Positions 41,718-60,225 of a DNA stretch of 64,000 nucleotides are shown in pieces; positions within the stretch are counted from its first letter, which is position 1, and each line of letters opens with the position of its first letter. Under the pieces are notes generated by a model. It made no database searches, had not been told where the DNA came from, and saw nothing but the letters and a program-made list of their open reading frames with translations. Both the position numbers and the translations under genes were made by a program. This DNA comes from Candidatus Latescibacterota bacterium (GTDB taxonomy: Bacteria > Latescibacterota > UBA2968 > UBA8231): positions 4,384,001 to 4,448,000 of the forward strand of contig OZ241362.1 of the NCBI GenBank assembly GCA_965200315.1, read 5' to 3'.

Positions 41718-43315
41718 CGCGGTGCGTCCTCTTAGGGGTCGCTTTCGCGTGCCTGTGGGCCGCGCTGGGCCGCGCCGAGGTGCAGTTTGTGGAGGTGGCG
41801 GCCGAGGCCGGGGTCGCTTTTCGCCATCAAAATGGAGCCAAGGGGCAAAAGTACCCCATGGAAACTATGGGCTCGGGCACGGCCTTTTTCGACTCCGATG
41901 GCGACGGATGGCTCGACCTGTATTTCGTCAACAGCGCCGGGCCGGGTGCGCTCTACCGCAACGCGAGTGCCGGTCAGTTCGCCGATGTAACCGACGCGGC
42001 CGGCGTGGCCCATGCGGGCTACGGGCTGGGCTGTGCCGCAGCCGACTACGACGGCGACGGCGACTTGGACTTGTACATCACCGCGTACGGCCCCAACATC
42101 CTCTACCGCAACGGGGGCAGCGGCCAGTTCGCCGATGTAACCGACCAAGCCGGCGTGGCCGGGCCAGTGCTAGCCAATCCGGCGATGAGTACGGGCGCGG
42201 CCTTTGCCGACTACGATTTGGACGGCGACTTAGATTTTTTCGTGGCCAATTACGCCAAGTTTCGCCCCGAAATACACGAGCCCTGCATCCGCTCCGGCGG
42301 GATTGCTGTGTACTGCGGGCCGGAGGCCTTTGAGCCGCAACGCGACGTGTTTTATCGCAACGACGGCGACGCGACTTTTGCCGATGTCGCCGAGGAAGCC
42401 GGATTGCTGCCGGACGCCGCCAAGGAATTAGGGGCCTTTTTCATCGACTACGATGCAGACGGCGACTTAGACTTGTACGCGGCTGGCGACCGCACCCCCA
42501 ACTTGCTCTACCGCAACGACGGCGGCCGCTTTGCCGAGATCGGTGCTTTGGCCGGAGTCGCCTACAACGACGCGGGCAAGCCGCTGGCGGGCATGGGGGT
42601 TGACGTGGGTGACTACGACGGCGATGGCCGATTCGACTTCTTCGTCACCAACTACCAGTGGGAGACCAACAGCCTGTACCGCAACCTCGGCAATGGGTTT
42701 TTCGCCGATGTAACCTTTCAGGCTGGGCTGGGGGTTCCCAGCTTGCAGTTCCTCGCGTGGGGCACCCTTTTCATCGACTACGACAACGACGGCGACCGCG
42801 ACCTGTTTGTGGCCAACGGCCACCTCGACGACAACATCCACCTGTTCGACGCGGTGACGTACGCGCAGCAAAACCAACTCTTCCGCAATCAGGGCCAAGG
42901 GCGCTTTGCCGACGTGAGCAATCAGGTGGGCCCCGGCCTGCTGTTGCAGCAAGTCAGCCGCGGTGCGGCCATGGGCGATTACGACAACGACGGCGACCGC
43001 GACATCTCAGTAGCCAACAACAACCAACCAGCCGCGCTCTTGCGCAACGACGGCGGCAACGCCCAGCACTATTTGAGCTTGCGGTTGGTCGGAGACTCCG
43101 TTGGCGCCGAGGTCCGCGTCGCCGCGGGCGATTGGGTGCGCTGGGACGTGGTGCGCGTCGGGTCGAGCTATATGTGCCAAAGCGCAATGCGCCCTTTTTT
43201 CGGCTTGGGAAACCGCACCCACGTTGATGAAGTGGAAATCCACTGGCCCAGCGGTGCTGTGCAGCGCTTGCAAGACATTGCAGCCGACCAAATTCTAACG
43301 GTACACGAGCCTTGA
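41714..43315 (+). CDS. CRTAC1-like FG-GAP repeat protein with ASPIC/UnbV domain
   Basis: Repeated DYDxDGDxD motifs; C-terminal FGLG...VEIHWPSG. Confidence 0.9.
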   Translation: MTRCVLLGVAFACLWAALGRAEVQFVEVAAEAGVAFRHQNGAKGQKYPMETMGSGTAFFDSDGDGWLDLYFVNSAGPGALYRNASAGQFADVTDAAGVAHAGYGLGCAAADYDGDGDLDLYITAYGPNILYRNGGSGQFADVTDQAGVAGPVLANPAMSTGAAFADYDLDGDLDFFVANYAKFRPEIHEPCIRSGGIAVYCGPEAFEPQRDVFYRNDGDATFADVAEEAGLLPDAAKELGAFFIDYDADGDLDLYAAGDRTPNLLYRNDGGRFAEIGALAGVAYNDAGKPLAGMGVDVGDYDGDGRFDFFVTNYQWETNSLYRNLGNGFFADVTFQAGLGVPSLQFLAWGTLFIDYDNDGDRDLFVANGHLDDNIHLFDAVTYAQQNQLFRNQGQGRFADVSNQVGPGLLLQQVSRGAAMGDYDNDGDRDISVANNNQPAALLRNDGGNAQHYLSLRLVGDSVGAEVRVAAGDWVRWDVVRVGSSYMCQSAMRPFFGLGNRTHVDEVEIHWPSGAVQRLQDIAADQILTVHEP

Positions 43316-44228: not shown

Positions 44229-46193
44229 ATGTCTATAAAACCCGAGCGGACAGCACCCAAGGAGGCAGACGGAATACCGGCTTTTACCGTCAAATCCGTG
44301 CTGGTTGGATGCGCCGGGGCCTTCAGCGTGTCGGCCGGGGCCGCCTACGGGACCCTCTATCTACACGGCTCCTTTATGGCCTTGGGCACCAGCATGCCCG
44401 GGGCGGTGTTCATCCTCTTCCTACTGACCCTCTTTATCAATCCCCTGCTCAAGCTCGTGCATCCGCGCTTGGGACTCAATCGGCGCGAACTGCTAGTCGT
44501 CTATGCTATGATGGTGATGGCCTCGCCGATCCCGACCCTCTTCGTCGGCAAATTCCTCAGTGCCATTAGCTACCCCTTCTACTATGCCACCGCTGAAAAC
44601 GAGTGGCGGCAACTGATCCACCCCTACATCCCCGATTGGCTGATGGTCCACGACGTGGAGACCGTCCGCAAATTTTACGAGGGCAGTGGACGCGATGAAC
44701 CCATTCCTTGGGAAGTATGGCGCAGCGTCATCGCGATGTGGACGCCCTTTATCTGCGCCCTCTTCCTGATGATGATTTCCTTCATGGCGATCCTGCGCAA
44801 ACAGTGGATTGAGCACGAGCGGCTGATCTATCCCCTGATGCAGGTGCCGCTGGCTATGACCGAGGAGGGCGAAGACGACCAAAAGCTAAGCCCCTTTTTC
44901 AAAAATCCCGTCATGTGGGCCGGTTTTGCCATCCCCGCGCTGTGGGGCACGTTGCACGGGCTGTACAACTACTTTCCCGAGACCATCCCCATCGCCCAGA
45001 ACGTCGATCCCGTGCGCATGGACGTACCGGTTTTCCGCCGCACGGCCGACCTGTATGTTGCGCTGCGCTTCAACATCATTGGTTTCTTCTACTTTCTCAA
45101 GACCGACATCGCCTTCAGCCTGTGGTTTTTCAACCTGCTCTCTTTTGCGGTGCGCGGCATTTTTGGCATTCTCGGCGTGATCAGCAGCGAGACGGGGGGG
45201 GCCGGCCACGCGGTACGCGATCCCTTTTTGGCCTACCAGTCGATGGGCGCGATTCTCGTGCTCTTTTTGGGCGGCATTTGGACGGCGCGCAAGCATCTGC
45301 GAGGTGTGTGGCGCAAGGCTTTCAAAGGCGACGATAGCATTGACGACAGCGACGAAATCCTCTCCTATCGCGCGGCCCTGCTTGTGCTGGCGGTTTCTTG
45401 TCTGGTGATAGTAGGTTGGCTGGGGCTGGCCGGGCTTCCTCCGATCTTCGGACTGGCCATTCTCTTCTTAGGCGTCGTCATCATCTTTGGCTATTCGCGG
45501 GTGGTGGCCGAGGGCGGACTTTCGGATGGCTCACCGCCGGTGGTGCCAGCGGGGATTTTAGTGTCCGCAGTGGGTTCGTCGGTCATCGGTGCCCAAGGTC
45601 TAGTCGTGCTGGCAACGACCTTCCTGTGGACCACTGGGCGCAATTTCGTCATGGTCTCCTGCGCCAATAGTCTGCGGCTGGGCGAGGAGTTGGGGCGCAA
45701 CCGCCGACCGCTCTTTTGGGTCATCGTCTTGGCGCTAGTCGTGGCCGTGGGCGCGGCCGTGTGGATGGTGATGCTGCTCAGCCACAAATACGGAGCAATC
45801 AACCTGTGGATTTGGAGCGGTGGCAACTACAGCTATATAGAAAAAGTCCTCCGCACGCCGACCGATTTCTACGGCTGGGGCTGGGTCAATATGGGGATTG
45901 GCGTGGCCATTATGACCGGATTGATGGTCGCACGTTGGCTCTACGTGTGGTGGCCGCTGCATCCGCTGGGCTACGTGATCGGGCCGATCTGGATCATGGA
46001 CCACTTGTGGTTCAATATGTTCATCGCTTGGGGGATCAAGGTGCTCGTGCTCAAATACGGGGGCGTGCGGCTCTACCTGAAGACGCGACCTTTTTTCATG
46101 GGGATGATCCTCGGCTATTTCACGCCCGGCGGGTTTTACCTGATCGTCGATCACTTCACCGGCATGACTTGGAACGTGATATTCTGGGGTTGA
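44229..46193 (+). CDS. Polytopic membrane protein, DUF6785/DUF6784 (OPT-like) putative transporter
   Basis: Many TM segments; LRKQWIEHERLIYPL, SRVVAEGG, WWPLHPLGY, LKYGG...RPFFMG. Confidence 0.75.
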   Translation: MSIKPERTAPKEADGIPAFTVKSVLVGCAGAFSVSAGAAYGTLYLHGSFMALGTSMPGAVFILFLLTLFINPLLKLVHPRLGLNRRELLVVYAMMVMASPIPTLFVGKFLSAISYPFYYATAENEWRQLIHPYIPDWLMVHDVETVRKFYEGSGRDEPIPWEVWRSVIAMWTPFICALFLMMISFMAILRKQWIEHERLIYPLMQVPLAMTEEGEDDQKLSPFFKNPVMWAGFAIPALWGTLHGLYNYFPETIPIAQNVDPVRMDVPVFRRTADLYVALRFNIIGFFYFLKTDIAFSLWFFNLLSFAVRGIFGILGVISSETGGAGHAVRDPFLAYQSMGAILVLFLGGIWTARKHLRGVWRKAFKGDDSIDDSDEILSYRAALLVLAVSCLVIVGWLGLAGLPPIFGLAILFLGVVIIFGYSRVVAEGGLSDGSPPVVPAGILVSAVGSSVIGAQGLVVLATTFLWTTGRNFVMVSCANSLRLGEELGRNRRPLFWVIVLALVVAVGAAVWMVMLLSHKYGAINLWIWSGGNYSYIEKVLRTPTDFYGWGWVNMGIGVAIMTGLMVARWLYVWWPLHPLGYVIGPIWIMDHLWFNMFIAWGIKVLVLKYGGVRLYLKTRPFFMGMILGYFTPGGFYLIVDHFTGMTWNVIFWG

Positions 46194-46200
46194 TTCTCAT

Positions 46201-46231
46201 TTGACAGGCACTTGTTATTTTGCGTTATATT
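46201..46231 (+). promoter_or_regulatory. Possible sigma70 promoter
   Basis: TTGACA-N19-TATATT (long spacer), followed by AGGAG RBS. Confidence 0.4.
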
Positions 46232-46258
46232 CGCCGTGAGATTTTCTGCTTTTAGGAG

Positions 46259-48322
46259 ATGGCCGGTATGAAATCCAAGCTCTGTTTGGCAGCGGCGTGT
46301 ATGGCCATAGTCCAAGTCTGCACGGCTGGAGCGCAAGTGTCGCAATTCCGTCTCGGCGGCGCTGATGGCCTCGATTGGGAAGAGCAGACCCTGATCAATT
46401 TGATGGTCGATAACCTCGCGATCCCCGGCTCGATCCAGCCGCTGGAGCTCAAGCCCGACGTCAATGTGGTGACCCGGCTACGCCACTGGACGCGCTATCG
46501 GCAGCCGATTGACATCAGCTATCAAGAGGGGATGCCCCGCATCTGGCGGGCAATCGGCGACGTCTCCCGGCCCGGGCACGTCTCCAACCCGATGGAATTT
46601 ATCGACGGGGATCTCAACACCTTTTACGAAGGGCGCGACTTTCAGGGCAGTGGCGGACTGGGAGGCATCTGGGGCGAGTTCTACACGCTCGATATGGGCA
46701 TGCAGATTCCCGCCGATCACTTCAAGTTGGTGCCGCCCGAGGGCAACGACCCCTTCTTCCAAGAACCGTACCGACCCAACTACAAATTTGAAGCCTACGA
46801 GTTGACGGCCAGCAACGACAAGGTCTTCGTAGAAAGCCAACAACCCCCGCAATTTCGCTCGGGTGTCTCCGTCGCCAACACGCCGTCGGCTTACTATCTG
46901 CCGCTAGACAAACTGTTGGCTAAGGTTGATCAGAACTTCGACGCCGTTATCGAGATCGACTTTCCGCTTCAGTATCTGCGCTTCTTCCGCATGCGAGTAG
47001 TACCTGATCTGCCTCATAAGTTCTCGCGCTACGCGCTGGCCGAGCTAGAGGTTTACGGCCGCGGTTTTGTTCCCCGGGCGCGCTGGCTATCCCAAGTGAT
47101 CGATATGGGCGATCTAATCAATGTCGGCGAAGTGAACTTCGGCTTGAGTACCTATCGGCGCGACGGGGATCAATTGATCGAATCTCCCGCCGCCAAGGCC
47201 GGAGTCAATATCGAGATCAAGACCGGGCTGGACGACGGCCCCATCGCCTATCACTCGTACAACGACTTGGCCCAGCCCGTGGAAGTGGAAAAGGACGTCT
47301 ACGCCAAGCTCAAACCGCGCGTGTGGCCGTGGGATCCACCGGCCGTGGGTTGGCAGGGCGTCATTGCCGCCGACATCAATAACTGGAGCTTCTGGTCGCC
47401 ACCGATCCGGGTTTCAGGACAGCGGCCCCGCGTGCCTAAGGGGCGCTATATTCAGCTACAAATCCAGCTAGAGACCAAAGCCTTGTGGGAGTTCGCCCGT
47501 CTCGATTGGATCACCATCGAGACCTCCCCGTTGTTGGCCGACCGGATCTTGGGCGAGGTCGCTGCGGTTGACCAATTGCGCCCCGACGGCAAAGTGCCAC
47601 AAGTGCCCGCAGGCGCACTGACCAAGTTCATCCTCGACTTGCGCGCTGAGTTTTCCGCCGCCGGCCAGCAGGGATTTGACGCGGTGCGGCTCGGCATGCC
47701 TTCTACGGGCCGGGTGCTGGGGCTGGAGATGGGCGATCCGCTGGCGACTGTGGAGCCGGACAGCATCGTCGACGAAGTGGACGAGTTGGCGGTTTATTTG
47801 CCGCAGATGATCGGGCCGGACACCAACGACGGTATTCGGTTGCACCTAGAAACGACCGTGTATGGTGCGTCTGACCAGTTGCGCGCCGAGGTCTTTGCGC
47901 GGCAGGGCGATTCGCTGCCCCAAAGCGTGGAAGGTGGCGACGCCAGCGACGAATTGGGCACTGACCAGTTGCGGGTATTAGTCAGTTCCGGTTCTCTCGA
48001 ATCCGTGCTGTCCGACGTGGCGATTACCCCCCCAGTCTTCACGCCCCAAGGAGACACTATCAACGACCAAGTGGCCATTGAATACACCTTATTCAGCGTG
48101 CTCGATGCGGTCGAAGTGGACGTCGAGTTGCTGACTTTGGCCGGTCAGCGGGTGCGGAGCCTATCGGGTGGAGTGCAGGGTGCTGGGCATCACGCACTGC
48201 AATGGGATGGCCGCGATGAGGCCAATCAACTCGTCGCGCCAGGCGTGTATCTGGCGCGCATTGGGGCCAACACCGACCGAGGCCGGGAGGTGCGCTTCGG
48301 GGCGGTGGCCGTAGCCTACTAA
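46259..48322 (+). CDS. Secreted discoidin-like + FlgD-Ig/T9SS-CTD-like protein (paralog A)
   Basis: Signal peptide; IDGDLNT, WSFWSPP, FTPQGDTIND, WDGRD, ends AVAY*. Confidence 0.8.
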   Translation: MAGMKSKLCLAAACMAIVQVCTAGAQVSQFRLGGADGLDWEEQTLINLMVDNLAIPGSIQPLELKPDVNVVTRLRHWTRYRQPIDISYQEGMPRIWRAIGDVSRPGHVSNPMEFIDGDLNTFYEGRDFQGSGGLGGIWGEFYTLDMGMQIPADHFKLVPPEGNDPFFQEPYRPNYKFEAYELTASNDKVFVESQQPPQFRSGVSVANTPSAYYLPLDKLLAKVDQNFDAVIEIDFPLQYLRFFRMRVVPDLPHKFSRYALAELEVYGRGFVPRARWLSQVIDMGDLINVGEVNFGLSTYRRDGDQLIESPAAKAGVNIEIKTGLDDGPIAYHSYNDLAQPVEVEKDVYAKLKPRVWPWDPPAVGWQGVIAADINNWSFWSPPIRVSGQRPRVPKGRYIQLQIQLETKALWEFARLDWITIETSPLLADRILGEVAAVDQLRPDGKVPQVPAGALTKFILDLRAEFSAAGQQGFDAVRLGMPSTGRVLGLEMGDPLATVEPDSIVDEVDELAVYLPQMIGPDTNDGIRLHLETTVYGASDQLRAEVFARQGDSLPQSVEGGDASDELGTDQLRVLVSSGSLESVLSDVAITPPVFTPQGDTINDQVAIEYTLFSVLDAVEVDVELLTLAGQRVRSLSGGVQGAGHHALQWDGRDEANQLVAPGVYLARIGANTDRGREVRFGAVAVAY

Positions 48323-48324
48323 GC

Positions 48325-50283
48325 ATGGAGTTTCAATCAATGGGCTTGCGCACGACAATTTCTCGCTTGGCGACCCTGTGCATAGCTGCTGTGGTCCTCG
48401 CTCCACAACCAGCAGTTGCGGAAGTCCGCCAGTGGGTGGTGGGTGGGGACGAAGGAGCCGCTTGGCGGGAACACGAGTTGCTTTCCACCGCGATGAGTTT
48501 CGACGTGCCGGGTGCCATCCAACTCGTAGCCTTTACCTCTAAGGACAACGTCATTCCGAGTCTGACTTGGGTTGATGGGTTTCCGAGTGGCTACGTGGAG
48601 GAACGCGCCCAAGCACTGATTTGGGACAACGTAGCGGTCGTGCGCCCCCTGTTGGAGATCGTCGATGGCATCGACACGACCTCCACCCACCTCGCGTTTA
48701 AACGCTTTGGCATCGCCCAAGACGGCACCAAGTTTTTCTTTGATTTAGGGACCCGCTTTCCCGCCAATCGAATTGCGTTTTTTCCGCGCTTAGAGGGCAT
48801 CAGTTCAGAGGGGCGTCCCTTCAGCGAAGACTACATCCGCGGCTACGTGCTCAAAGTCAATGACGGCGCGAGCTTCAACGAGCGGGACGAGCCGATCTAT
48901 ACCCCCATAAAGCGCGTCGACTTTACCCGCGAGAACACGACGCAGATCGACTTCCCCCTGCAATTCGTCCGCTACATTGAATTAGAAGTCACCTCGGCTA
49001 GCCCGTTTGAACTGGCCGAATTTCAACTCTTCGGTACGGGATTCGCGCCGGCCGGCTCCTATCGGTCAAAGATCATCGACCTCGGAGAGCCAGCTAATCT
49101 CAGCCGCATGGAATGGACGCTGGAAAAGCTGCGTCAGAGCGGCGACGAGCTAATCGTCGAGCCAGCCGCCGATGCCGATTTGACGGTGGTGATGCGCACC
49201 GGCCTAGACGACAACCCCCGGGTCTATTACGAGTACGTCGATCTCTTTACCCGCGAGCGGCAGGTCGTCTCCGAAGACGAGTACAAGGCCCTCGACGAAA
49301 GTGTGCGCGGCCCGATTGACGACGACCAAGTCAACTGGAGTTTGTGGTCGCCCCCCTTCCTTGAGTCCGGCCAGCCCATCCAGCTACCCAGCCCAAGGCG
49401 CTACTTCCAGTTTGAGGTGCGAATCGAAAGCGGCGCGATTCTCGACGGCTTGCGGCTCACCTCCCTGCGCGTCGAACACACGATCCCGCCCGTGGCCCAG
49501 CTCTTGGTGGCTGAGGTTTCCGAGTTAGACGTCCCCCGTCCCCCCGGCGATGTGCCCATTGTAACCGCCGGGGACTTTACGACGTTTGCCTACGATGTCG
49601 TAGCCCAAATCGAGGAGGCGGACACCGGCTTTGACGCCCTGCGCATCCTCACACCCCAATCGACGCCCGTGTTTCGGCAATTCTTCACCGGAGAAGATGG
49701 GGTCGAGGTCACACCCGACAGCGTGCAAGCAGACCTAGGCAGTCTGACTATTTTCTTTCCTTCGCAACGGCCAGCGATCGGCATTCACCGCATGCGCGCC
49801 GTATTCGACTCGCAGATTTTCATCCAAGGCACCTCGGTCGAAGCTGAGGTCTTTGACTCGCAGGCCGAGGACGGCGTGCCGCAGCGAGTGCAGCCCGGCG
49901 ACGCCAACCCAGAAGTGCTGACCAATGCTCTGCGGGTGCTGACAACGGCCGCTTCGGCCAGCCAGTTGGTGTCCTCCTTGGCAGTAAGTAGTCCGGTCTT
50001 TACCCCCAATGGAGACGGTATCAACGACCAAGTAGAATTGATCTACAGCCTGTTGCAGTTGGTCAAGCCGGTCGCAGTGGCAGTTGAAATTCTCGATTTG
50101 GCCGGTCGCCCCGTGCGTACCGTCCTCAAAGCCGAAAGCACGAGCGGAGCCTATGCAGTGGCTTGGAACGGGCGCGACGATCGAGGACAGGTCGTTCCGC
50201 CGGGCCTGTACCTCGCCGTGGTCCAAGTCCACACTGAGCGCGAGACACTTGTGCGTTCTAGCAGCATGGGCGTGGCGTATTGA
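48325..50283 (+). CDS. Secreted discoidin-like + FlgD-Ig/T9SS-CTD-like protein (paralog B)
   Basis: Signal peptide; FFDLG, WSLWSPP, FDALRI, FTPNGDGIND, WNGRD, ends GVAY*. Confidence 0.8.
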   Translation: MEFQSMGLRTTISRLATLCIAAVVLAPQPAVAEVRQWVVGGDEGAAWREHELLSTAMSFDVPGAIQLVAFTSKDNVIPSLTWVDGFPSGYVEERAQALIWDNVAVVRPLLEIVDGIDTTSTHLAFKRFGIAQDGTKFFFDLGTRFPANRIAFFPRLEGISSEGRPFSEDYIRGYVLKVNDGASFNERDEPIYTPIKRVDFTRENTTQIDFPLQFVRYIELEVTSASPFELAEFQLFGTGFAPAGSYRSKIIDLGEPANLSRMEWTLEKLRQSGDELIVEPAADADLTVVMRTGLDDNPRVYYEYVDLFTRERQVVSEDEYKALDESVRGPIDDDQVNWSLWSPPFLESGQPIQLPSPRRYFQFEVRIESGAILDGLRLTSLRVEHTIPPVAQLLVAEVSELDVPRPPGDVPIVTAGDFTTFAYDVVAQIEEADTGFDALRILTPQSTPVFRQFFTGEDGVEVTPDSVQADLGSLTIFFPSQRPAIGIHRMRAVFDSQIFIQGTSVEAEVFDSQAEDGVPQRVQPGDANPEVLTNALRVLTTAASASQLVSSLAVSSPVFTPNGDGINDQVELIYSLLQLVKPVAVAVEILDLAGRPVRTVLKAESTSGAYAVAWNGRDDRGQVVPPGLYLAVVQVHTERETLVRSSSMGVAY

Positions 50284-50299
50284 GAAAGGAGCGGTATCT

Positions 50300-52588
50300 A
50301 TGAACCGACTATGGCTTTGTTTGCTGACGCTGGTTTTGCCAGCGAGTTTTGTCCATTCTCAAGAGGTTTTTGAAATAAACACCAAGGCGCAGTGGGAGAC
50401 GTGGACCTACCCGATCGGGGCTGTTGACTTGCGAGAGGATGGATCGATCCGGCCGGTCAAATTCGAGCAGCCCTTCAACGCCGCCCCGAGTTCCCCTCTG
50501 TTCACGCATGAGCTAAAGAAGGTCAAAGAGCAGCGCGGCGGGGTGTGGAAGGCCGGGTCCAACGCGGCTGATGCCCACCTGATCATCGACGACGACACCG
50601 CGACCTATTGGAAGCCCAATCAAGACGACCCGCTCGACACTTGGTGGATCGAAATCGATTTGGGCCGCATGGTGGCCGTCAAGGAAGTTCGCCTGCACTT
50701 CCCCGACGAGGAAGGTGCCCGCCCGCTGCGGGCACTCCGGGTCTTTGGATCCGACGGCAAATTTCAATCCATTACCGATGACGTCTTTCTCTTCAACCTC
50801 ATCGGCGGCACGACCAAGCGCAACGAAGAGACCCTCTTGTCGTATCCAGTGGCCTTTGGCGAAGCAACCAAACGGGTGTTGAGCTTTGGCCAACCTGCCG
50901 AGGGCGCCTCCACAACCTTCGCGCCCACCCAATACATCCGCATCATAGCCGACGTCAAGAGTGAGGACGCGGCCCTTGCCGAGGTCGAAGTCATCTCGTT
51001 TGGACAGAACATCGCCCAAGGGACCGTGGCGCGGGGAGGCATAATCGACGATCAGGGCAAGGAGCGTGCGCCGGCCATGATCGACGGCAATGTCAATACC
51101 TTCTGGGAGGAACTCAACTGGAGTGAGACCGGCCAGTTCATCGCCCAGTGGCGCTGGGATTTGGGTGCTGTCTTTTGGGTCAACCGCGTCATCTTCGTAG
51201 CGTTTCAGGAGACCACCACTTGGGGTCGGCCGCGCATCTTGCGCCACCGGCTGCTGGGGTCGGCCGGCGAGCTCAAGCCCTCCGGCGATATCGATTTCGA
51301 CGTACTTTTCGACTTCCCTGCGCCAGGTGATTGGAACAATCCCGAACCAATCACCTATCTCATGCACCCGTACCGGCCCCTGCGCTATCTCGAAATGATC
51401 TTCGGCGGCAGCAGCAGCGGCGCGATGGCCGAAGCCGTCGTCGTACCCACCGGCTATGTCGCTGAAGTGGAATTGCGCTCGGACTTCCTCAAGGTAGACG
51501 ACAGCCCCAAGGTTTTCCGCACCCTCGAATGGGACGCCGACTTACCCCCGGGAACGCAAATTTTGGCGCAGACGCGCTCGGGTAGCGGTCTCGAAGAGGG
51601 CAATACGTATTACCACCGCAAGGGCCACGAAGTGACCGAGGACGAATACAACGCCTTGAAGAAACGGTGGAAAGGCGACATCGTGCCCTACATTCGGCCG
51701 ACCCAAGATTGGAGCGGCTGGAGCAACACCTACCTGTTCTCCGGTCAAGAGTTTCTCTCGCCCAGCCCGAGGCGCTACGTGCAGTTCAGGGTGTTACTCA
51801 AATCGGATAGCCCAGATGTGGCCCCCACCCTAAAAGGGCTGTGGCTCAACTACACGGATTCGTTCCTCAACGGGGCGCTCGGCCAAGTCACCCCCAACGA
51901 GGCCCAAGTGGGCCAGCCGGAAAACTTTACGTACGTGTTGCAGCCGGACTTCAAATCGGGCGACAAGGGCTTTAACCTCCTGCGGCTAAACACGCCATCG
52001 CAAGCGGCCGTCGAGAGCGTGGTCATCCGCGTTGCCGGTACCGAAGTCGCGCCGGTCTCCCTAGTGCTGTTGCCCGACTCGCTGGTAGTGGAACTGCCGC
52101 AAGTCGTCCGGCGGCAAGAGGTCGAAATTGATCTACAGGTCAACGTATTCTCCAATCCCTACCTCTTTTCTGCCTTTGTCGGCCACACCGACGAGATGGA
52201 GTTCTGGCAGCAGGTTGATCCGGCTGGGCGGGCGGCCACCACGGTATTTCTGCCCGAAGTGCCGGCGTCCGAGAGCCTGCTCGACAAAGTCGCTATTTCG
52301 CCCAAGGTCCTCACGCCCAACGGCGACGGAATCGGCGACCACGCCGAGATTCGCTTTGCGGTATTAAAGACAGACGCCCCGATAGCAGTCGATATCTATG
52401 CGCTCGACGGTCGGCAGGTAGGCTCGTTGGCGGGCGGCCGCAAAAGCGATGGCTTCCTCGTCTATGAGTGGAATGGCGAAGACGACGCAGGCCAGCGCGT
52501 ACCCCCGGGGATTTACGTGTGCCGCATCCAAATCAATGCCCAAGCCGAAGTCCAAAACTTGGCGCAGATCATCAACGTAGCTTACTAG
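50300..52588 (+). CDS. Secreted protein with two discoidin-like modules and FlgD-Ig/T9SS-CTD-like tail (paralog C)
   Basis: ATG after AAAGGAG; IDDDTATYW/WWIEIDLG and IDGNVNTFW/WRWDLG; LTPNGDG; ends NVAY*. Confidence 0.8.
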   Translation: MNRLWLCLLTLVLPASFVHSQEVFEINTKAQWETWTYPIGAVDLREDGSIRPVKFEQPFNAAPSSPLFTHELKKVKEQRGGVWKAGSNAADAHLIIDDDTATYWKPNQDDPLDTWWIEIDLGRMVAVKEVRLHFPDEEGARPLRALRVFGSDGKFQSITDDVFLFNLIGGTTKRNEETLLSYPVAFGEATKRVLSFGQPAEGASTTFAPTQYIRIIADVKSEDAALAEVEVISFGQNIAQGTVARGGIIDDQGKERAPAMIDGNVNTFWEELNWSETGQFIAQWRWDLGAVFWVNRVIFVAFQETTTWGRPRILRHRLLGSAGELKPSGDIDFDVLFDFPAPGDWNNPEPITYLMHPYRPLRYLEMIFGGSSSGAMAEAVVVPTGYVAEVELRSDFLKVDDSPKVFRTLEWDADLPPGTQILAQTRSGSGLEEGNTYYHRKGHEVTEDEYNALKKRWKGDIVPYIRPTQDWSGWSNTYLFSGQEFLSPSPRRYVQFRVLLKSDSPDVAPTLKGLWLNYTDSFLNGALGQVTPNEAQVGQPENFTYVLQPDFKSGDKGFNLLRLNTPSQAAVESVVIRVAGTEVAPVSLVLLPDSLVVELPQVVRRQEVEIDLQVNVFSNPYLFSAFVGHTDEMEFWQQVDPAGRAATTVFLPEVPASESLLDKVAISPKVLTPNGDGIGDHAEIRFAVLKTDAPIAVDIYALDGRQVGSLAGGRKSDGFLVYEWNGEDDAGQRVPPGIYVCRIQINAQAEVQNLAQIINVAY

Positions 52589-52646
52589 CTAAATTGCAGC
52601 TAGCTCCTAGCCCATTCGGCAAAGCCTCTTGAGGGAGGGGTATTTT

Positions 52647-55280
52647 ATGTATTTGTCTCGCATCCGACCGGCATTGTGTGCAGCACTCGCGTTGCTGGCG
52701 CTAGACTGGAGCATCGCTCTAGCTCAGTTGACTACAGGCTATCGGCCCATAGCCGAGCCAGGGATCTACGGGGTGCGTATCCATCCCGGTGCGCTAGCGC
52801 CCAACCGCCGCAAGTTCTACCTTCCGCAAAATCTCTTCTACGAATACGGCTGGCGGGGCTGGGAGTACAGCAACTACGCCCGCGACGAGTACGAGCGCTA
52901 CGTGGACATACAACTAGAGGGAAACCGCCACTACGACGCCTTCGGCAACTACATCGCCCGCGGCTGGACGATTTACGACTGGACCGAGAACAACCCTCTG
53001 CGCCAAGGCAGCGGCATCTTCAAAAGCCCGCGCTACAGTAGTTGGTTCGACCGCGTGGTGATCTCGTCTGCCCACAAGGGCCAGTTTCACACCGCGCTAA
53101 CAGTCGGCGACGCCATTCGCACCACCCTGACCCCACTGACCTTCTCCAAGCCGACCTTTAACGGCATCCAGTGGGACTTCCTCTCCGACAAGTACGCATT
53201 CACGTTCCTCGGCTCGCGCATCAGCTCACCGGCCAACCCGGCCGGAACCCAGTCTGAGGCCGCTGCCCTCGTGGAAAACTCCACCCGCCTACTCGGCGGC
53301 CGGGGCGTGGCCCAAGTGGGCGACTTCGCCAAGGTTGGGGCGACGTGGGTCAGCGCCCACAACGCGCGGAGCACCCTCGACATGGGGGACAATTCGCTCA
53401 AGGGCGTCTTGACCACGCCGCAGAACACGGGCAGCGTCGAGACCGTGACGATCCTCATCTCAGACGATTCGCCTGAGTCGAGCGACAACGGTGCGCTACT
53501 GTTTTTCGACCGAGTGCTGATCGACGGCGAGATTCACCCGGAAATCACCCCCATTGTTCGCGGCGGAATCCGCACCGGTGGCAGCTTAGAGGCGAGGGGT
53601 GTGGACAACATCGAACTGATCTACGACATCCGCAACAGCTTCCGGCCCACCGAAAAGGTGCCGACCTATCAGGAGGCGAGCAAAATCGAGTTTGAGTTGA
53701 TTCTGGCCAACGACTACCGAGTGGCCGTCACGTCCAACGTGCAAACCGACCGCTTGGGCGACCCCGTCTTTTTGCCCGTGGCCCAAGCCGAAGGCGAAAT
53801 ATCCGACGGGTCGAACCAACAGTTTTTGCGCTTTGAGTACGGGTTGCCCACTGGCAGCGATGTAATCGGGGTTGACTTTGAGATTCTGAGCCGCGGCGGC
53901 CTAGACCTGCGCGCCGAGTTCGTGCGCAACCGACGCTTCCGGCGCTTCCCCAACCAAAACCTAGAGCAACATACCCTCGCCGAAGACAAGGGAGAGGCCG
54001 GTTATATCACCGCGTCTTATACCTCCTATCCGTGGTTTGCCTACGGCGAGATGTTCACCATGGACCCCGATTACAGCACGACCGCGTTCATGGCCAACTC
54101 GCTGGGCGGCATCGATTACAGCAGCGAAATTTTTCACCTCTTCGAGTTCGTCGATGACAACGACGACCAAGACCGCTTTGCCGACTGGCAGCGGGCTGGT
54201 CAATTCGGCACCGGAGTAGGTGCTTCAGGCGGCTCGGTGGGTTCCGACTTAGAGGTGTTCCCCGGGCTAGACGAGAACAACGACTTCGTCTCCGACTTCA
54301 ATCAAAACCGCAACTCGCGGCCCGACTACGACGAGCCTTTCTTGCGCTATGAAGTCGATCCTCCGGCCTTCCTCTTCGGCATGGACATGAACAACAACAC
54401 CCTGATCGACCGCTTTGAAGACGACCGTCAGCCCGACTATCCCTATGACCGCGATCACCGTGGCTACAACGCCTACGGCGGTCTGATGTTCAGCGAGGAC
54501 GCACAACTAACCCTTGGCCGATTGAGCGAGCGCCAGCTAAGCTCAGCGCGCAAGAGCAAGGCCAACTACGGCTTGTTCACCGTGCGCTGGAACTTCCCGG
54601 GCCTGCGAATCGCGCTCTTTGAGCACGCGAAACTCGTGTCGGACAACATCCCGGAAGACCGCCTGCGCTGGATAGACCCAACGGGCCGGACGGACTTTAC
54701 CGATCCACTCGACAACCAAAACACTTTCGTCAACAGCATCTACTTGCAGGCAAACTACAACCGCATCCGCAACTTCAGGGCGACTGCCAAGGTCAAACAC
54801 GAGATTTTCAACCAGCGCGATGAGCAGGCCGACAAGCGCGACCGCTCGTTTTTCGGGCTGATTACCAAGGCCGACTACACCATTCCCATTGGCGCGGACC
54901 TGACTGTCTGGCCCAAGTGGAAGAGTACCTTCAGGCGCGAGACTCCCACCGATCCGTCACTGGCCAATATCCGCGAGCTAGAGGAAACCCTGTTCTTGAT
55001 TTCGCGCTATGCGATTCTCGAACAGACTTGGATCGCGCTCGGTCTAGAGTTCAGTTGGTTTGAGAACTTGCACGACCGGCCGGCCGAGCTACAAGTCGGT
55101 TATGTCGAGGATTTTACCAGCCGCGTCTATTCGATTCTGTTCTCCAATACGTCGGCCTATTTGGGCTACCAGCTAACCTTAAATGCGGGCCTTCAGCTAG
55201 AGGAGCAAAACTTCGAGGCCGAGCAGCGCAACACCTCGCTCGGATTCATTCGCGTTTTCGCCAGCACTGGGCAAGAGTAA
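52647..55280 (+). CDS. Large exported protein, probable outer-membrane beta-barrel with Ca-binding loops
   Basis: Signal peptide; DDNDDQDRFAD, DENNDFVSD, DMNNNTLID motifs; alternating amphipathic strands in the C-terminal third. Confidence 0.6.
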   Translation: MYLSRIRPALCAALALLALDWSIALAQLTTGYRPIAEPGIYGVRIHPGALAPNRRKFYLPQNLFYEYGWRGWEYSNYARDEYERYVDIQLEGNRHYDAFGNYIARGWTIYDWTENNPLRQGSGIFKSPRYSSWFDRVVISSAHKGQFHTALTVGDAIRTTLTPLTFSKPTFNGIQWDFLSDKYAFTFLGSRISSPANPAGTQSEAAALVENSTRLLGGRGVAQVGDFAKVGATWVSAHNARSTLDMGDNSLKGVLTTPQNTGSVETVTILISDDSPESSDNGALLFFDRVLIDGEIHPEITPIVRGGIRTGGSLEARGVDNIELIYDIRNSFRPTEKVPTYQEASKIEFELILANDYRVAVTSNVQTDRLGDPVFLPVAQAEGEISDGSNQQFLRFEYGLPTGSDVIGVDFEILSRGGLDLRAEFVRNRRFRRFPNQNLEQHTLAEDKGEAGYITASYTSYPWFAYGEMFTMDPDYSTTAFMANSLGGIDYSSEIFHLFEFVDDNDDQDRFADWQRAGQFGTGVGASGGSVGSDLEVFPGLDENNDFVSDFNQNRNSRPDYDEPFLRYEVDPPAFLFGMDMNNNTLIDRFEDDRQPDYPYDRDHRGYNAYGGLMFSEDAQLTLGRLSERQLSSARKSKANYGLFTVRWNFPGLRIALFEHAKLVSDNIPEDRLRWIDPTGRTDFTDPLDNQNTFVNSIYLQANYNRIRNFRATAKVKHEIFNQRDEQADKRDRSFFGLITKADYTIPIGADLTVWPKWKSTFRRETPTDPSLANIRELEETLFLISRYAILEQTWIALGLEFSWFENLHDRPAELQVGYVEDFTSRVYSILFSNTSAYLGYQLTLNAGLQLEEQNFEAEQRNTSLGFIRVFASTGQE

Positions 55281-55303
55281 GCGGAAACGGCGAAAAATTG
55301 AAC

Positions 55304-55332
55304 TTGCTAAGCACTCTTAAAAGACGTAAAAT
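55304..55332 (+). promoter_or_regulatory. Internal sigma70-like promoter
   Basis: TTGCTA-N17-TAAAAT upstream of 55393 with GGAGG RBS. Confidence 0.55.
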
Positions 55333-55392
55333 TAAAAATTCTTAGAGGATGAATCGTCGATAGCCTCATCACTACTCTCACGGAGGAAATGT

Positions 55393-56319
55393 ATGAAAAA
55401 ATCCTTTTTCTTTATTTTCGTTTGCGCCGCAGCGTTTGCCTTAGTCAGCCCGGCTAACGCGCACGTCGGTGCTGAGTATTTCATCCCGGGCGTACCCAAT
55501 CCCAGTGCCATGACCATCGACGGTCTCGAAGACGATTGGGGCTGGCTGGACGAGGAATTCATCCTCACGACCGAGGGCATGTTCACTGCCGGGGGCGAGA
55601 CCATCGCAAAAGAAGACTACGACGTCAGCATTCTGATGGCGTGGAGCACGCCGCCAGACAACCGCTTCTACTTCTTCATCCGCGTTCAAGACGATACACT
55701 GCGTCTGCTCGAAGAAGACCAGAAGCGCTGGTGGAACGACGACTGCATCCAGATTACCTTCGACCCGGATCACTCGGGTGGCGACTTCTTGGGCGAAAAC
55801 GTCGATCAGGTCCTCAACGCCCAGCGCTATCACCTGCGCATCAAGCCGCTGCCGGGACAGCCCGTGGCGTACAACAGCCTGCTCGAATACATCGACCTAC
55901 CGCCGATTGGCTGGAGTTCCGATATGTTTGAGGGACAGGCCACTGGCGACATTTTCGAGATCGCTTGGACCGTCAATCCGCCGGATGCCGAGCATTTTTC
56001 GACCAACGTCTCGTACACCTTTGAGTTCCGCAACGCCTTTTGGGACATCCACGGTGTAACCCAAGACGAGGCGGTTCGGCACATATTCGAAAATGATCAA
56101 GTGACCCATATCGGCGTACGTCCGCTTGATGGCGATGGCGGCGAGACCGGTGCCAAGCACCAGCTCTATCCGCTGGGCGGCTCCACGGGCCAAGACCAGA
56201 AGGGCGACCAGATGCTCGACTACATCCTGTTGGAGGCCGACGAAGTCGAGGAAGAGACGGCCGTCGAAGCCACAAGTTGGGGTCGAGTCAAGAGCCATTT
56301 GAACAGCCAGCTCGACTAA
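55393..56319 (+). CDS. Secreted acidic CBM9/DOMON-like protein with C-terminal TAVEATSWGRVK motif
   Basis: Signal peptide; TIDGLEDDW, FYFFIRVQDD, DDCIQITFDPDHSGG. Confidence 0.7.
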   Translation: MKKSFFFIFVCAAAFALVSPANAHVGAEYFIPGVPNPSAMTIDGLEDDWGWLDEEFILTTEGMFTAGGETIAKEDYDVSILMAWSTPPDNRFYFFIRVQDDTLRLLEEDQKRWWNDDCIQITFDPDHSGGDFLGENVDQVLNAQRYHLRIKPLPGQPVAYNSLLEYIDLPPIGWSSDMFEGQATGDIFEIAWTVNPPDAEHFSTNVSYTFEFRNAFWDIHGVTQDEAVRHIFENDQVTHIGVRPLDGDGGETGAKHQLYPLGGSTGQDQKGDQMLDYILLEADEVEEETAVEATSWGRVKSHLNSQLD

Positions 56320-56352
56320 GCACGGCTGAATTGTATCAGCGGTCTAGCAAAG

Positions 56353-56387
56353 CGAGGAGGGGCAGCCGCCCCTCCTCGTCTTGTATT
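56353..56387 (+). terminator. Strong hairpin, probable terminator or mRNA stabiliser
   Basis: CGAGGAGGGGC-AGCC-GCCCCTCCTCG followed by TCTTGTATT. Confidence 0.65.
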
Positions 56388-56458
56388 AGGCGCGGGTATC
56401 TCTCTCCGTTGAAGGCGGGGAGCGGATTGAAACAACAAAGAAGCGAGGATAGCCAGCC

Positions 56459-57214
56459 ATGAAGACATTGGGCAGCTTGCTCCTATTGCTAATCGCGCTC
56501 GCCGGATGTGGCTTGAAGTTTGGGTATCGGCATTTTACCGGTCCGGTGGTGCCCACGGAAATCGCGGATGACAACTACTTGGTCGGCGACGATCACAGCA
56601 TCACTTTCGTCAAAGATCGTCTAGAGGTAGCGATGTTGCCCATGTCGACCGAGGCCCTGAACCGGCAATTCTCCGGCGTCTCAGCGGCCCCAGCGGGTTT
56701 TACCCTGCCCAATCCCTACGCCGTGGCGACCAATCCCTACACCTATGGCGATTGGACGCCGCCCGGTGAAGAGCAAGCACCGACGCGGTTTACCGTTTTT
56801 TTAGTCAAGGTCAAAAACTACGCCTATCCCAAAGTTCGCCTAAATCCGGCCAACATCGAATTGATCGCCCCCAACGGGCGTCGCTATGAGGCGCTCACTC
56901 TCCTCGCCCTGACCGAGTACTACTGGCCCTATGCCCAAGCCTATGGCGGCAATGCGCGCAAGGGCTTTAAGGCGCGGCGCGATCTCTTGCAGCGCACTCT
57001 GTTTGCCGACGACATGATCTTCAGCGGCCAAGAGCAAGAAGGGTACTTGGTCTTTCCCCCGCTCGACCGCGACGTCGAAGAATTTACGCTGTGGGTCCGC
57101 GAGATGGTGCTGAGATTCGACTTCCGCGACGCTCCTGTGGAGACCGTCGATATCCCCTACGACTTCCAGCGCGAAGTGTACTACGCCCGCACCCCACGTG
57201 AAAACAAGAGCTAA
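56459..57214 (+). CDS. Hypothetical lipoprotein
   Basis: Lipobox LAGC; beta-rich body (FTVFLVKVKN, GYLVFPPL). Confidence 0.75.
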   Translation: MKTLGSLLLLLIALAGCGLKFGYRHFTGPVVPTEIADDNYLVGDDHSITFVKDRLEVAMLPMSTEALNRQFSGVSAAPAGFTLPNPYAVATNPYTYGDWTPPGEEQAPTRFTVFLVKVKNYAYPKVRLNPANIELIAPNGRRYEALTLLALTEYYWPYAQAYGGNARKGFKARRDLLQRTLFADDMIFSGQEQEGYLVFPPLDRDVEEFTLWVREMVLRFDFRDAPVETVDIPYDFQREVYYARTPRENKS

Positions 57215-57215
57215 A

Positions 57216-58886
57216 ATGGCGGCGCGTACGATCGGTTGTTTGTCTCTGGTCATTATCGCTGCCTGTAGTTCCCCCCAAAGCGACAAAAGCGTCGTAGCCC
57301 GCGTCGGCGAAGTCGCTATTACCTTTGAAGATTTACAGCGCTTCAAAAGCGACATGCCCCCCCTCCTGCTCTCCACGCGGGAGGGCGTCGCTGCATTCAA
57401 AGAATATCTTCAAGCGATGATCGCCATGGAGCTCATGTTGCTAGAGGCGCAAAAGCGGCAAATCGCTAGCGACCCAGATTTTATAGAACAATGGGAACAG
57501 GCGCGCAGAGAAAAGCTCTTCCAAGAATTCGTCAAGCTAGAAATCCAAGACAAAATTGACCTGCCGCAAGAGGAAATAAAGCGGCAGTGGAGTGAGAGCA
57601 AGTGGAATCGGCTACTAAAACTCGCTCGCATCCGCTCGAGTACCGCCGACGAGGCCGCCCAAGTCCTGAGTGCCCTAGAGAGTGGGACCCCGTTTGAGGA
57701 ACTGTCCGGCCAACCCCTGATCCACCACCAGCAAGGGAGTCTGCAAGGGGCGTTGAACTCCTATGTTGGACGAAACAATATCGAAGAGTTCGGGGTCTCT
57801 TTCGATGTGGCGGAGGTACTCTTCGAGCTCGCTAAAGGCGAAATTAGCGAGCCGCTGAAGGTCGAAGCCGGCTACGACATCTATAAGGTGTTGGACGAAC
57901 GTCCCGCGCCAGCCAGCTATTACTTGGTCTTTTCCCAAGGGACACTAATGGCCGCCTTCGGCGAACGTCGGCGAGTGCTCATTGCCGAGCTGATGCGGGA
58001 ATACAATGTCGAACTAGATCCCCGTAGTATCTCCGAGTTAGCCACCCTCGTCGCCCAAGACAATGTGGAGGCTATCGACACGGAGGGCATTGTGGGCCGC
58101 TACAACGGTGGTCAGATAACGCTAGCTGATTTCCTAGCGCTCTACCCGAAAGTGCGTCGGGTCGCCTCAGTGGGCACTGACAGTAGCGGTATCGATGAAT
58201 TCGTTCGGCTCTATCTGGTGCCCGAGATGCTCTTCCCCGTGGCAATCGAACGCCGCGGCTTGGCGCAGGAGCCAGCGATAGCCGACTGGCTGCGGAGCAA
58301 AAAACGGGCGATGCTCATCGAAGAGCTGCGCCGCCGCGACGTGGAAGAGCACGTCGATCTGAGCGAAGATGTGCTTCGACGCTACTACGAGGCCAATCTG
58401 CATCGTTTCATGGAAGATCGAGAAGTGACCGTGCAGGAGATCCTAGTTGCCACCCAAGAAGAGGCCGAGGCGCTAGCGGTACGCATTCGAGCGGGTGAAG
58501 ACATGGCGACGTTAGCTACAAGGCACAGCATCCGCCAAGGCAACGACAAGGGCCGCTTCCACATCCACTCCTTTGAGCGGGTGGTTTTCGGCGAACTGTT
58601 GACAGAGGCCCTAGCCGCAGAGGTTGGTGTGCTCACTGGTCCGGTGGCCATCACTGGGACTCCACACCGCCAAGGTGGTTTCTCGCTGTTTGAGGTGCTG
58701 GAAAAGAGCCCCGAAAAGCCTAAGCCATACGACGGGGTGGTCAAACAAGTCCGCTACTGGTGGACCAAGAGGGAGGAAAATCGCCTCTATAACGAACTGA
58801 TTGACCGCCTGCAAAAAAAGCATGCCGCACAAATCTCCATCTACGAGGATCGCTTGGCGACCATGTATGACACGGCTCAGCTATAG
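57216..58886 (+). CDS. Parvulin-type peptidyl-prolyl isomerase / SurA-PrsA-like lipoprotein chaperone
   Basis: Lipobox IAAC; two rotamase-like repeats (FEELS...GEISEP; QEILV...GEDMATLATRHS). Confidence 0.75.
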   Translation: MAARTIGCLSLVIIAACSSPQSDKSVVARVGEVAITFEDLQRFKSDMPPLLLSTREGVAAFKEYLQAMIAMELMLLEAQKRQIASDPDFIEQWEQARREKLFQEFVKLEIQDKIDLPQEEIKRQWSESKWNRLLKLARIRSSTADEAAQVLSALESGTPFEELSGQPLIHHQQGSLQGALNSYVGRNNIEEFGVSFDVAEVLFELAKGEISEPLKVEAGYDIYKVLDERPAPASYYLVFSQGTLMAAFGERRRVLIAELMREYNVELDPRSISELATLVAQDNVEAIDTEGIVGRYNGGQITLADFLALYPKVRRVASVGTDSSGIDEFVRLYLVPEMLFPVAIERRGLAQEPAIADWLRSKKRAMLIEELRRRDVEEHVDLSEDVLRRYYEANLHRFMEDREVTVQEILVATQEEAEALAVRIRAGEDMATLATRHSIRQGNDKGRFHIHSFERVVFGELLTEALAAEVGVLTGPVAITGTPHRQGGFSLFEVLEKSPEKPKPYDGVVKQVRYWWTKREENRLYNELIDRLQKKHAAQISIYEDRLATMYDTAQL

Positions 58887-60225
58887 GGCACTGGGTTTTT
58901 TCGCCTGCGCATTGCTTTGCGCTTGCGACGGCGACGGCGACCACTTAGCAGCAGCCAAGCGTCTAGCGACAGAAGGCAAATACACCGATGCCGTCGCCGC
59001 GTGCCACCAAGCACTCGCAGCCAATAGCCAGCACCTTGAAGCCCTCTTGCTCTTGGCTCGCCTCAATCTGGTTCAAGGCCATCTAGCGCCGGCGGCGCAA
59101 CTGGCCGAGCAGGCCGTTCAGCTAGCCCCCGACTACGCCGATGCCTATCTACTTTTGGGCGATATCTACATCCGGCAGCGGCGCAACGCCGATGCTGCAA
59201 TAATCTATCAAGAGGGTCTGCACACCGTCCCCGAGCGGGAGGATTTCTACCGCAAACTCGCCATAGCCTACGCCGACGACGGGCACTACAGTGAAGCCAT
59301 AGAGGCCCTCCAACAAGCCCTGCAACACTCCGACGACGCAGCCATTCACTACAATTTGGGCGTGGTCTATGAGCGGCAGGCGCACTACGACGAGGCTAGC
59401 CGCGCATTTGCCCGCACCACTGAGATAGACACCGCCTATGGCGACGCTTATTTTCGGCTGGGGCAAATCCAAGGCAAGCAGGGCCTATTCGAGGAGGCCG
59501 CGGCTAACTTCGCGCGCATGATCACCCTAGACCCAAACTACGCCCCGCCCTATACTGGGCTTGGCCAAGTCCGCATGCAGCAAGGTCGCTCAGACGAAGC
59601 CGAGCGCCTCTTTAAGCAAGCCATTGCCCTTGACCCCTTTGAAGGCGAAGCCTACCACCGACTCGGTACGCTCTTTTTGCGGCGGGGAGACCAAGAACGG
59701 GGCGAGAAGCTCTTGGCCATGTTCAAACGCATCCAACCCGTCAGCGCCGATATCGAGCGTTTCCGCTATATCCTCAACCTCTACCCCGACGACGCCAACG
59801 CGCACTACAACCTAGGAGTGCTCTACGGAGGGCTTGGTCGCTACGCCGAGGCCGGCGTCGAGTACGCTGCGGCATTGCGCATCAACGACCAAGATCTCAG
59901 TGCCCGCAACAACTTGGCCAATGTTCTCCTGCGGCAGCGACGCATCGACGAAGCGATCCACCACTACGAGATCGCGCTGGCGCTCAATCCGCGCTATGCC
60001 CAAGGCTTTAACAATCTGGGCTCGGCTTATCTGATGAACGGCGATTTGCAGCAAGCCATCCAAGCTTTTGCCAAGGCGCTCAAGCTAGCACCGGACAACG
60101 CCGATACGCACTTCAATCTTGCCCGTCTTTACAAAAGCCAAGGGCTGGATGCGCGGGCCGCCGCTGAGATGAAGATCTACAATCAGCTTGTACAGGCCGC
60201 TAAAAAAAAAGAACACAGTGAGTGA
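58867..60225 (+). CDS. TPR-repeat lipoprotein
   Basis: Lipobox LCAC; many TPRs (HYNLGVVY, AYFRLG, NNLGSAY). Confidence 0.88.
   Translation: MTRLSYRALGFFACALLCACDGDGDHLAAAKRLATEGKYTDAVAACHQALAANSQHLEALLLLARLNLVQGHLAPAAQLAEQAVQLAPDYADAYLLLGDIYIRQRRNADAAIIYQEGLHTVPEREDFYRKLAIAYADDGHYSEAIEALQQALQHSDDAAIHYNLGVVYERQAHYDEASRAFARTTEIDTAYGDAYFRLGQIQGKQGLFEEAAANFARMITLDPNYAPPYTGLGQVRMQQGRSDEAERLFKQAIALDPFEGEAYHRLGTLFLRRGDQERGEKLLAMFKRIQPVSADIERFRYILNLYPDDANAHYNLGVLYGGLGRYAEAGVEYAAALRINDQDLSARNNLANVLLRQRRIDEAIHHYEIALALNPRYAQGFNNLGSAYLMNGDLQQAIQAFAKALKLAPDNADTHFNLARLYKSQGLDARAAAEMKIYNQLVQAAKKKEHSE

Follow-up and report, generated by a model that had tools for sequence, protein, structure and literature searches.

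In the Bacteroidota, polysaccharide utilization loci (PULs) come as many paralogous loci that combine a large outer-membrane barrel with binding proteins at the surface and, in many cases, a carrier in the inner membrane; their energizer is encoded in trans. According to the sections available of one account of the T9SS (type IX secretion system), the PorP/SprF barrels are 14-stranded proteins of ~33 kDa (PMC9143113), and in the available part of another, orphan type B cargo proteins of F. johnsoniae share one shuttle (PMC12618676). The Agl-Glt core is given, in the portion consulted of PMC3169522, as AglR/Q/S with tetratricopeptide repeat (TPR) proteins and the TonB-like GltG. The Latescibacterota are described, in the parts available of two genome papers, as polymer degraders (PMC12993501, PMC4454575) with non-specific porins (PMC4454575). 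Here we compare with these systems a cluster of nine genes at 44229-60225 on the forward strand of a 64,000-nucleotide stretch (the window) of the genome of a Candidatus Latescibacterota bacterium (contig OZ241362.1).

The nine open reading frames (ORFs) share one orientation and either overlap or lie 2-139 bp apart, as the original prediction, made from the sequence alone, had reported. In order, they encode a DUF6785 inner-membrane protein, three secreted proteins whose tails end in Tyr, a large barrel, a CBM9-like protein, a lipoprotein, a parvulin peptidyl-prolyl isomerase (PPIase) and a TPR lipoprotein (Table 1). We put at about 0.5 the probability that the multi-copy Latescibacterota cassette to which these genes belong captures and imports food, being SusCD-like but made of unrelated parts. 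In such a cassette, the T9SS would export Tyr-tailed proteins of three classes (A, B and C), which, together with the CBM9-like protein, would dock on a barrel of ~24 predicted strands; a shared ExbB-ExbD motor, encoded in trans, would open the barrel, DUF6785, with its predicted OPT/YSL fold, would move the solute over the inner membrane, and the PPIase and TPR lipoproteins would assist folding. The cargo may be glycans, glycopeptides or metal chelates, and, as with the SusCD loci of the Bacteroidota, the paralogous copies would differ in the substrate that they serve.

The host genome (5.36 Mb in one contig, 94.7% complete, 7.8% contaminated) contains many relatives of these genes. Among ORFs called in this analysis, with the window's second tailed gene added by hand, there are 38 barrels of at least 600 amino acids, 101 tailed proteins bearing the shared body, 34 full DUF6785 proteins, 30 CBM9-like proteins, 30 PPIases and 14 lipoproteins; six cassette families take up 9.4% of the host DNA, so that about a tenth of the genome is spent on them. 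The cassette is a lineage-specific expansion, and its clustering goes far beyond chance: all 38 full-length barrels have a tailed protein within 15 kb, and a PPIase, a CBM protein or a TPR protein lies within that distance of 31, 31 and 30 of them, respectively. A CRTAC1-like family is a recurrent accessory: 22 of its 40 members have a barrel within 15 kb (null 5.1). Genome-wide, DUF6785, the lipoprotein, the PPIase and the TPR protein are variable members of the cassette.

Of 151 genomes surveyed across the phylum, 95 have the barrel, among them all 63 sampled from the host's own family; it occurs in 11 of 14 sampled families, and in two other families the counts are 0/30 and 0/19. Its matches at E 0.001 fall into 720 protein clusters (50% identity). 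The exact nine-gene order is retained in 17 close orthologous loci and also in two further loci (L033/L034), in which the first seven genes are ~55-69% identical, while other orthologue groups (L040-L062) keep the same parts in rearranged order. Among loci of this barrel's subfamily, 54 of the 74 fetched have full flanks, and these encode tailed proteins (54/54), the lipoprotein (53/54), DUF6785 (51/54), the PPIase (50/54) and the CBM protein (47/54); their kinship means that these counts are not independent of one another. DUF6785 is present in 9 of the 10 orthologue groups of the subfamily. The original prediction of an undescribed cell-envelope system is supported by this conserved synteny, but it missed that dozens of paralogous copies exist.

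The three tailed proteins are divergent paralogues, as had been proposed (26-32% mutual identity, hhalign probability 100), and Pfam places FlgD_ig/CHU_C at the C-termini of all three. The CHU_C scores obtained are 27.7, 24.2 and 14.9 bits, the protein over the Pfam cut-off of 27 being the third, and their scores for the NCBIfam model TIGR04131 are below its cut-off. Two details of the original prediction hold in part. The motif FTPNGDGxND is exact only in the second protein (FTPNGDGIND), which ends in GVAY; the first has FTPQGDTIND and ends in VAVAY, and the third has LTPNGDGIGD. Of the three supposed discoidin proteins, only the third passes Pfam for F5/8 type C (E 3.6e-10), whereas the other two are negative by Pfam and positive via an alignment profile. 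Profiles built from alignments of tailed proteins match FlgD and, for the third protein, the F-type lectin FBP32 (E 2e-7) and CBM32 proteins, and the trio is predicted to carry sugar-binding (lectin-type) domains.

Across the host genome, 98 of the 101 body-bearing tailed proteins end in Tyr and 94 contain [TS]PNxD. Their tree resolves three ancient classes, A, B and C, labelled from its clades, and all three occur near 26 of 30 barrels, where label shuffling gives a mean of 7.0 and a maximum of 18 (8 divergent barrels were left out of this test, and twin barrels share loci). The patristic distances of barrels and their partners, compared with one barrel per locus over 8-22 pairs, are strongly correlated for A (0.93), B (0.84), C (0.86) and the CBM protein (0.89), and less so for the lipoprotein (0.58) and the PPIase (0.39). 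Inside each barrel clade the correlations for A, B and C stay significant (0.60-0.97); that for the CBM protein in barrel clade 1 is not (p 0.09). Such correlated distances indicate co-duplication of barrel and partners as one unit, and we infer that A, B and C may form a physical complex with the barrel.

Other tailed genes of the host are arranged differently. A second class of C-terminal domain comprises 44 tail-only proteins, with a K/R end in 34 and PNP[FA] in 37; these are unlinked to barrels (3 of 40 scored lie nearby; null 4.8). At 4940613-4953884 of the host genome stands a tandem of six Tyr-tailed genes, with C and B1 alternating and no barrel nearby, and the window itself holds an orphan class B1 gene on the reverse strand (17071-19092).

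The 877-residue product of 52647-55280 was correctly taken for an outer-membrane barrel: its AlphaFold2 model, built from 82 sequences, reaches a pLDDT of 86.9 and a pTM of 0.86, and we are confident of the predicted large barrel. The DSSP string of the model, read without coordinates, gives 23 long strands and shorter N-terminal ones, making 24 strands likely. A beta domain is inserted at residues ~242-397. In the 132-residue loop 473-604, 33 positions are Asp/Asn, with several of the Asp invariant, and the motif Dx[DN]x[DN] occurs four times, which makes calcium binding by the loop likely. The N-terminal segment is conserved and aromatic, with low confidence over the first 45 modelled residues.

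No Pfam or NCBIfam family matches this protein, and a sequence-profile search of the PDB gives no credible match. Structure searches return generic barrels only (best Foldseek match MtrB, TM-score 0.29, root-mean-square deviation (rmsd) 18.6; best VIA match Z 14.2, rmsd 9.9 over 250 aligned residues), and the likeness to the TonB receptor, LptD, usher, MtrB and Omp85 is equally generic, with none of these assigned or excluded. In the ESM Atlas, all 30 neighbours of the barrel homologue P0121 are uncharacterized, the nearest named cluster being DUF6029 at 0.89. We rejected the PorP/SprF-type shuttle of the original prediction: members of that family have 14 strands and ~300 residues, so an 877-residue barrel of 23-24 predicted strands is not one of them. 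PF11751 and TIGR03519 likewise do not match it at E 0.05 or E 1, while they do match small barrels of the operons described below, where a separate ~310-residue PorV/PorP-like gene is found.

The CBM9-like protein is a weak match to Pfam CBM9_1 (E 0.0065) and a clearer profile match to the CBM9 structure 1i82 (E 1.5e-6). Its short C-terminal tail recurs: [ST]W[GA]x[ILV]K, usually after TAVE, ends 41 host proteins, against 0.09 expected from its internal frequency; 25 of the 30 CBM9-like proteins have it, and the other 16 proteins vary in sequence. It is possibly a third sorting signal. The lipoprotein belongs to no Pfam or NCBIfam family, and the PDB profile search gives nothing credible for it.

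DUF6785 is most likely an importer of the OPT/YSL type, judging from its modelled fold. The window protein matches Pfam DUF6785 (E 3e-123) and DUF6784 (E 8e-28), and its AlphaFold2 model (pLDDT 89.2) aligns over the full chain with barley YS1 (7wst; Foldseek E 2e-8, TM-scores 0.64/0.69, 11% identity), the sole family below E 0.001. Pfam OPT scores two DUF6785 homologues at 23.1 and 25.9 bits against a cut-off of 25.8, and the window protein not at all; a sequence-profile search of the PDB finds nothing credible. Neighbours annotated as peptide transporter/OPT at 0.78-0.79 in the ESM Atlas are a lead only. DUF6785 also has homologues in a second, probably OPT-like protein family (hhalign 93%), and ~1530-residue Peptidase M28-like/FtsX fusions are encoded near DUF6785 genes at two loci (L087:2389-6975, L093:11997-16589).

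Fifteen of the 34 host DUF6785 genes lie near a barrel (null 4.1). The other 19 lie away from barrels, and the barrel-linked genes are scattered across the DUF6785 tree, as would be expected if a module of barrel, trio and CBM protein and an independent DUF6785 module merely co-locate in expanded genomic islands. We consider such a mosaic very improbable, given that the nine-gene order persists at ~60% identity in L033/L034, that the parts are kept together after rearrangement in L040-L062 and that DUF6785 recurs in nearly every orthologue group.

The host encodes SprA (621 bits), PorV (237 bits) and PorU (615 bits), all above curated cut-offs. These T9SS core genes agree with the attribution of the tails to a T9SS; GldM and GldN were not found in this 94.7% complete genome, in searches that had no positive control and did not cover GldK and GldL. 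A PorP/SprF search of the genome, also without a positive control, was empty. SusD (PF07980) is absent from the host genome, with a positive B. thetaiotaomicron control.

Candidate partners for secretion and energization are encoded elsewhere. Eight divergent barrels lie in three host loci with a ~1100-residue TPR protein, a lipoprotein and DUF4159, and two of these loci also encode ExbB and two ExbD. We call such loci master operons; in the host they lie at 1.355-1.373, 3.93-3.95 and 4.84-4.86 Mb, and elsewhere in L119-L135. Their parts are a Tyr-tailed gene, a PorV/PorP-like barrel, one to three large barrels, the ~1100-residue TPR protein, ExbB, two ExbD, a protein with a transmembrane segment, stalk and DUF4159, and a lipoprotein; individual operons vary, and not all have the complete set. 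In a survey of 20 regions from 10 other genomes, the series barrel-TPR-ExbB-ExbD-ExbD occurs in 8 of the 10 genomes, and in 7 the ~310-residue PorV/PorP-like gene is flanked by the Tyr-tailed gene and the barrel; genome G002 has neither the ExbBD link nor the small barrel, and the loci of G001 end early without ExbBD. In NCBIfam the small barrels match PorV_fam and PorP/SprF at scores under the cut-offs, and in Pfam one of them exceeds the PorP_SprF cut-off. The shared shuttle of F. johnsoniae fits a shared shuttle in this genome, and a small PorV/PorP-like shuttle, encoded at another locus, may serve the T9SS in exporting the trio.

At the C-terminus, the long forms of the lipoprotein found in master operons have a TonB-C-like AgmX/PglI domain, over the NF033768 cut-off in 6 of 6 tested and the only such domain in the host genome; their GltG matches are weak and far below the cut-off. 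This gene content would also suit an energized machine of the Agl-Glt/Nfs kind, in which surface material is moved or assembled by ExbB, two ExbD, the long TPR protein and the AgmX/PglI protein; these may also stand in for GldLM as motor of the T9SS, with the expanded loci as interchangeable outer modules. The parts are of the same types as those of the Agl-Glt core, as far as the portion consulted of PMC3169522 lists them, and GldM and GldN were not found while SprA, PorU and PorV are present. That explanation nevertheless seems improbable to us: the barrel, lipoprotein and tailed proteins have no Glt-family match in NCBIfam, ExbB with two ExbD also stands at an unlinked fourth host locus, no positive control accompanied the Gld searches, and DUF6785 is left unexplained.

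Several observations weigh against a capture-and-import cassette. DUF6785 and the lipoprotein lie within 15 kb of only 18 and 16 of the 38 barrels. DUF6785 co-diverges weakly with the barrel (rho 0.38, 9 pairs), its 19 genes away from barrels do not suit a fixed role in the cassette, and 6 of the 34 adjoin an M28-FtsX fusion. Pfam finds neither of the TonB-receptor domains PF00593 and PF07715 in the barrel (the 13 PF00593 matches of the host genome all lie elsewhere), and the window lipoprotein lacks the TonB-C-like domain. ExbBD is absent from the window locus, so that a motor would have to act in trans, and of the host's 4 ExbB genes 2 have a barrel within 15 kb (p 0.07); the survey of master operons, picked as best matches of a divergent barrel, is a selected and related sample. 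Catabolic families are not enriched near barrels (PhyH 3/41, Gfo/Idh/MocA 3/40, a crude sulfatase motif 1/14), and, CRTAC1-like genes aside, no family has more than 4 members there and no hydrolase recurs, unlike in classical PULs.

The lack of catabolic enzymes would be natural in a surface display platform, in which the barrel anchors or assembles a heteromeric lectin or adhesin (A, B, C and the CBM9-like protein) for attachment or host recognition, and DUF6785 is a co-regulated passenger. Such a platform would account for the fixed A/B/C set and its close co-divergence with the barrel, for the dedicated foldase, and for the type B CTD-like tails, as type B cargo in the Bacteroidota remains bound to its cognate barrel in the account given by the available sections of PMC9143113; ushers are also among the generic fold matches. 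We regard it as unlikely, since a passive anchor needs no ExbBD linkage, a small PorV/PorP-like gene already stands beside the tailed gene in most sampled genomes, and DUF6785, with its predicted importer fold, is kept in 51 of the 54 subfamily loci.

A capture-and-import cassette remains our preferred explanation. Of the two alternatives in the original prediction, uptake by a PUL-like apparatus agrees best with the OPT/YSL fold predicted for DUF6785, a barrel family tied to ExbBD, and the absence of SusD; the host's 13 TonB-receptor matches, set against its 38 barrels, also favour it. A fuller version can be proposed more tentatively, with less than even odds: a new class of uptake machine driven by the proton-motive force, equivalent in the Latescibacterota to SusCD, comprising an unrelated calcium-loop barrel of ~24 strands, a lectin heterotrimer delivered by the T9SS, ExbBD acting through a TonB-C lipoprotein and an OPT/YSL importer, in dozens of substrate-specific copies, whose ExbBD may also drive a T9SS lacking GldLM.

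The co-oriented run extends beyond the nine genes (Pfam, NCBIfam), with SSF, CRTAC1-like and PhyH genes upstream and a fused major facilitator superfamily (MFS)/spermidine synthase gene downstream. The latter (60188-61735) overlaps the TPR gene, and is kept in most close orthologous loci and was not seen in more distant ones. Beyond it, at 61755-63998, a Gfo/Idh/MocA gene lies between two related ureidoglycolate-lyase-like ORFs, the second judged by eye. Elsewhere in the window are a stand-alone DUF4159 gene (9726-10937, forward strand) and a low-GC region at 22949-32256 (minimum 0.45) that holds five ORFs lacking Pfam matches and a transposase of the IS1595 family (29272-30264). RNA-library contigs from three studies overlap the cluster in 30, 30, 30 and 29 of 30 bins, although coverage by contigs neither demonstrates transcription nor allows genes to be ranked; that the depth is greater at the CBM9-like gene is a lead only. 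Promoter and terminator site totals show no excess over shuffles.

Table 1. Features of the nine-gene cluster and its accessory gene, in window coordinates
Feature	Position	Strand	Basis
CRTAC1-like FG-GAP/ASPIC-UnbV protein, recurrent accessory, outside the nine-gene coordinates	41714..43315	+	Pfam
DUF6785/DUF6784 inner-membrane protein, ~14 transmembrane helices	44229..46193	+	Pfam, AlphaFold2, Foldseek
Tyr-tailed secreted protein of class B1 with a discoidin-like domain, the shared body and a tail like a FlgD-Ig/type B CTD (C-terminal domain)	46259..48322	+	
Tyr-tailed secreted protein, class A1	48325..50283	+	
Tyr-tailed secreted protein, class C, two discoidin-type domains (CBM32-like, F-type lectin-like)	50300..52588	+	
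Large predicted outer-membrane beta-barrel, 877 residues, uncatalogued family	52647..55280	+	AlphaFold2 model
Promoter-like match 5' of the CBM9-like gene (lead only)	55304-55332		
CBM9-like secreted protein with short conserved TAVExxSWGxIK-type C-terminal tail	55393..56319	+	Profile matches
GC-rich 12-bp hairpin, terminator-like, 3' of the CBM9-like gene (lead only)	56352..56379	+	
Lipoprotein, uncatalogued family, lipobox-like LAGC	56459..57214	+	Sequence
PrsA/SurA-type parvulin PPIase lipoprotein (foldase)	57198..58886	+	Pfam, NCBIfam
TPR lipoprotein, ATG start at 58867	58867..60225	+	Pfam, NCBIfam, sequence

The claim of an undescribed conserved envelope system agrees with the literature as far as it was covered. 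No mention of DUF6785, and no co-mention of Latescibacter and type IX secretion, was found in a search that left most subscription papers and supplements, which might list genes, outside its reach; the parts available of the two Latescibacterota genome papers describe no such cassette (PMC12993501, PMC4454575). If our preferred explanation is correct, a multiplied capture-and-import system would explain how Latescibacterota feed, DUF6785 (as an OPT/YSL-fold importer) and an uncatalogued barrel family would gain a testable function, and T9SSs in which GldLM is not found would have a candidate motor.

The cassette is real and undescribed, and would act like a SusCD locus yet belongs with neither SusCD nor PorP/SprF. 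Like SusC/SusD PULs, it forms many paralogous loci, each with a large predicted outer-membrane barrel, putative surface binding proteins and often a carrier, and its energizer would be encoded in trans; it differs in having no SusD and no match to the TonB-receptor barrel or plug, in putative binding proteins that are T9SS-tailed instead of lipid-anchored, in a carrier with a predicted OPT/YSL fold and in degradative enzymes that are not clustered. With the T9SS type B systems (SprB-SprF, PG1035-PorP-PorE) it shares the CHU_C-like tail (above the Pfam threshold in the third protein), cargo genes beside an outer-membrane barrel and a TPR lipoprotein, SprA and, in master operons, a PorV/PorP-like gene following the tailed gene, whereas its barrel has 877 residues and ~24 predicted strands, three cargo classes are fixed per locus, and GldM and GldN were not found. 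DUF6785 resembles barley YS1 in its predicted whole-chain fold and in the weak Pfam OPT matches of its homologues, and differs in its low identity and its 34 paralogues in one genome. Finally, the master operons recall the Myxococcus Agl-Glt/Nfs machinery in their ExbB-type and two ExbD-type proteins, TPR protein, AgmX/PglI TonB-C-like domain and outer-membrane barrels, all in one operon. The window locus has none of these motor parts, which would act on it in trans; the TonB-C-like domain sits on a lipoprotein of another family, the window genes have no Glt match, and T9SS-type cargo and a predicted importer are present.

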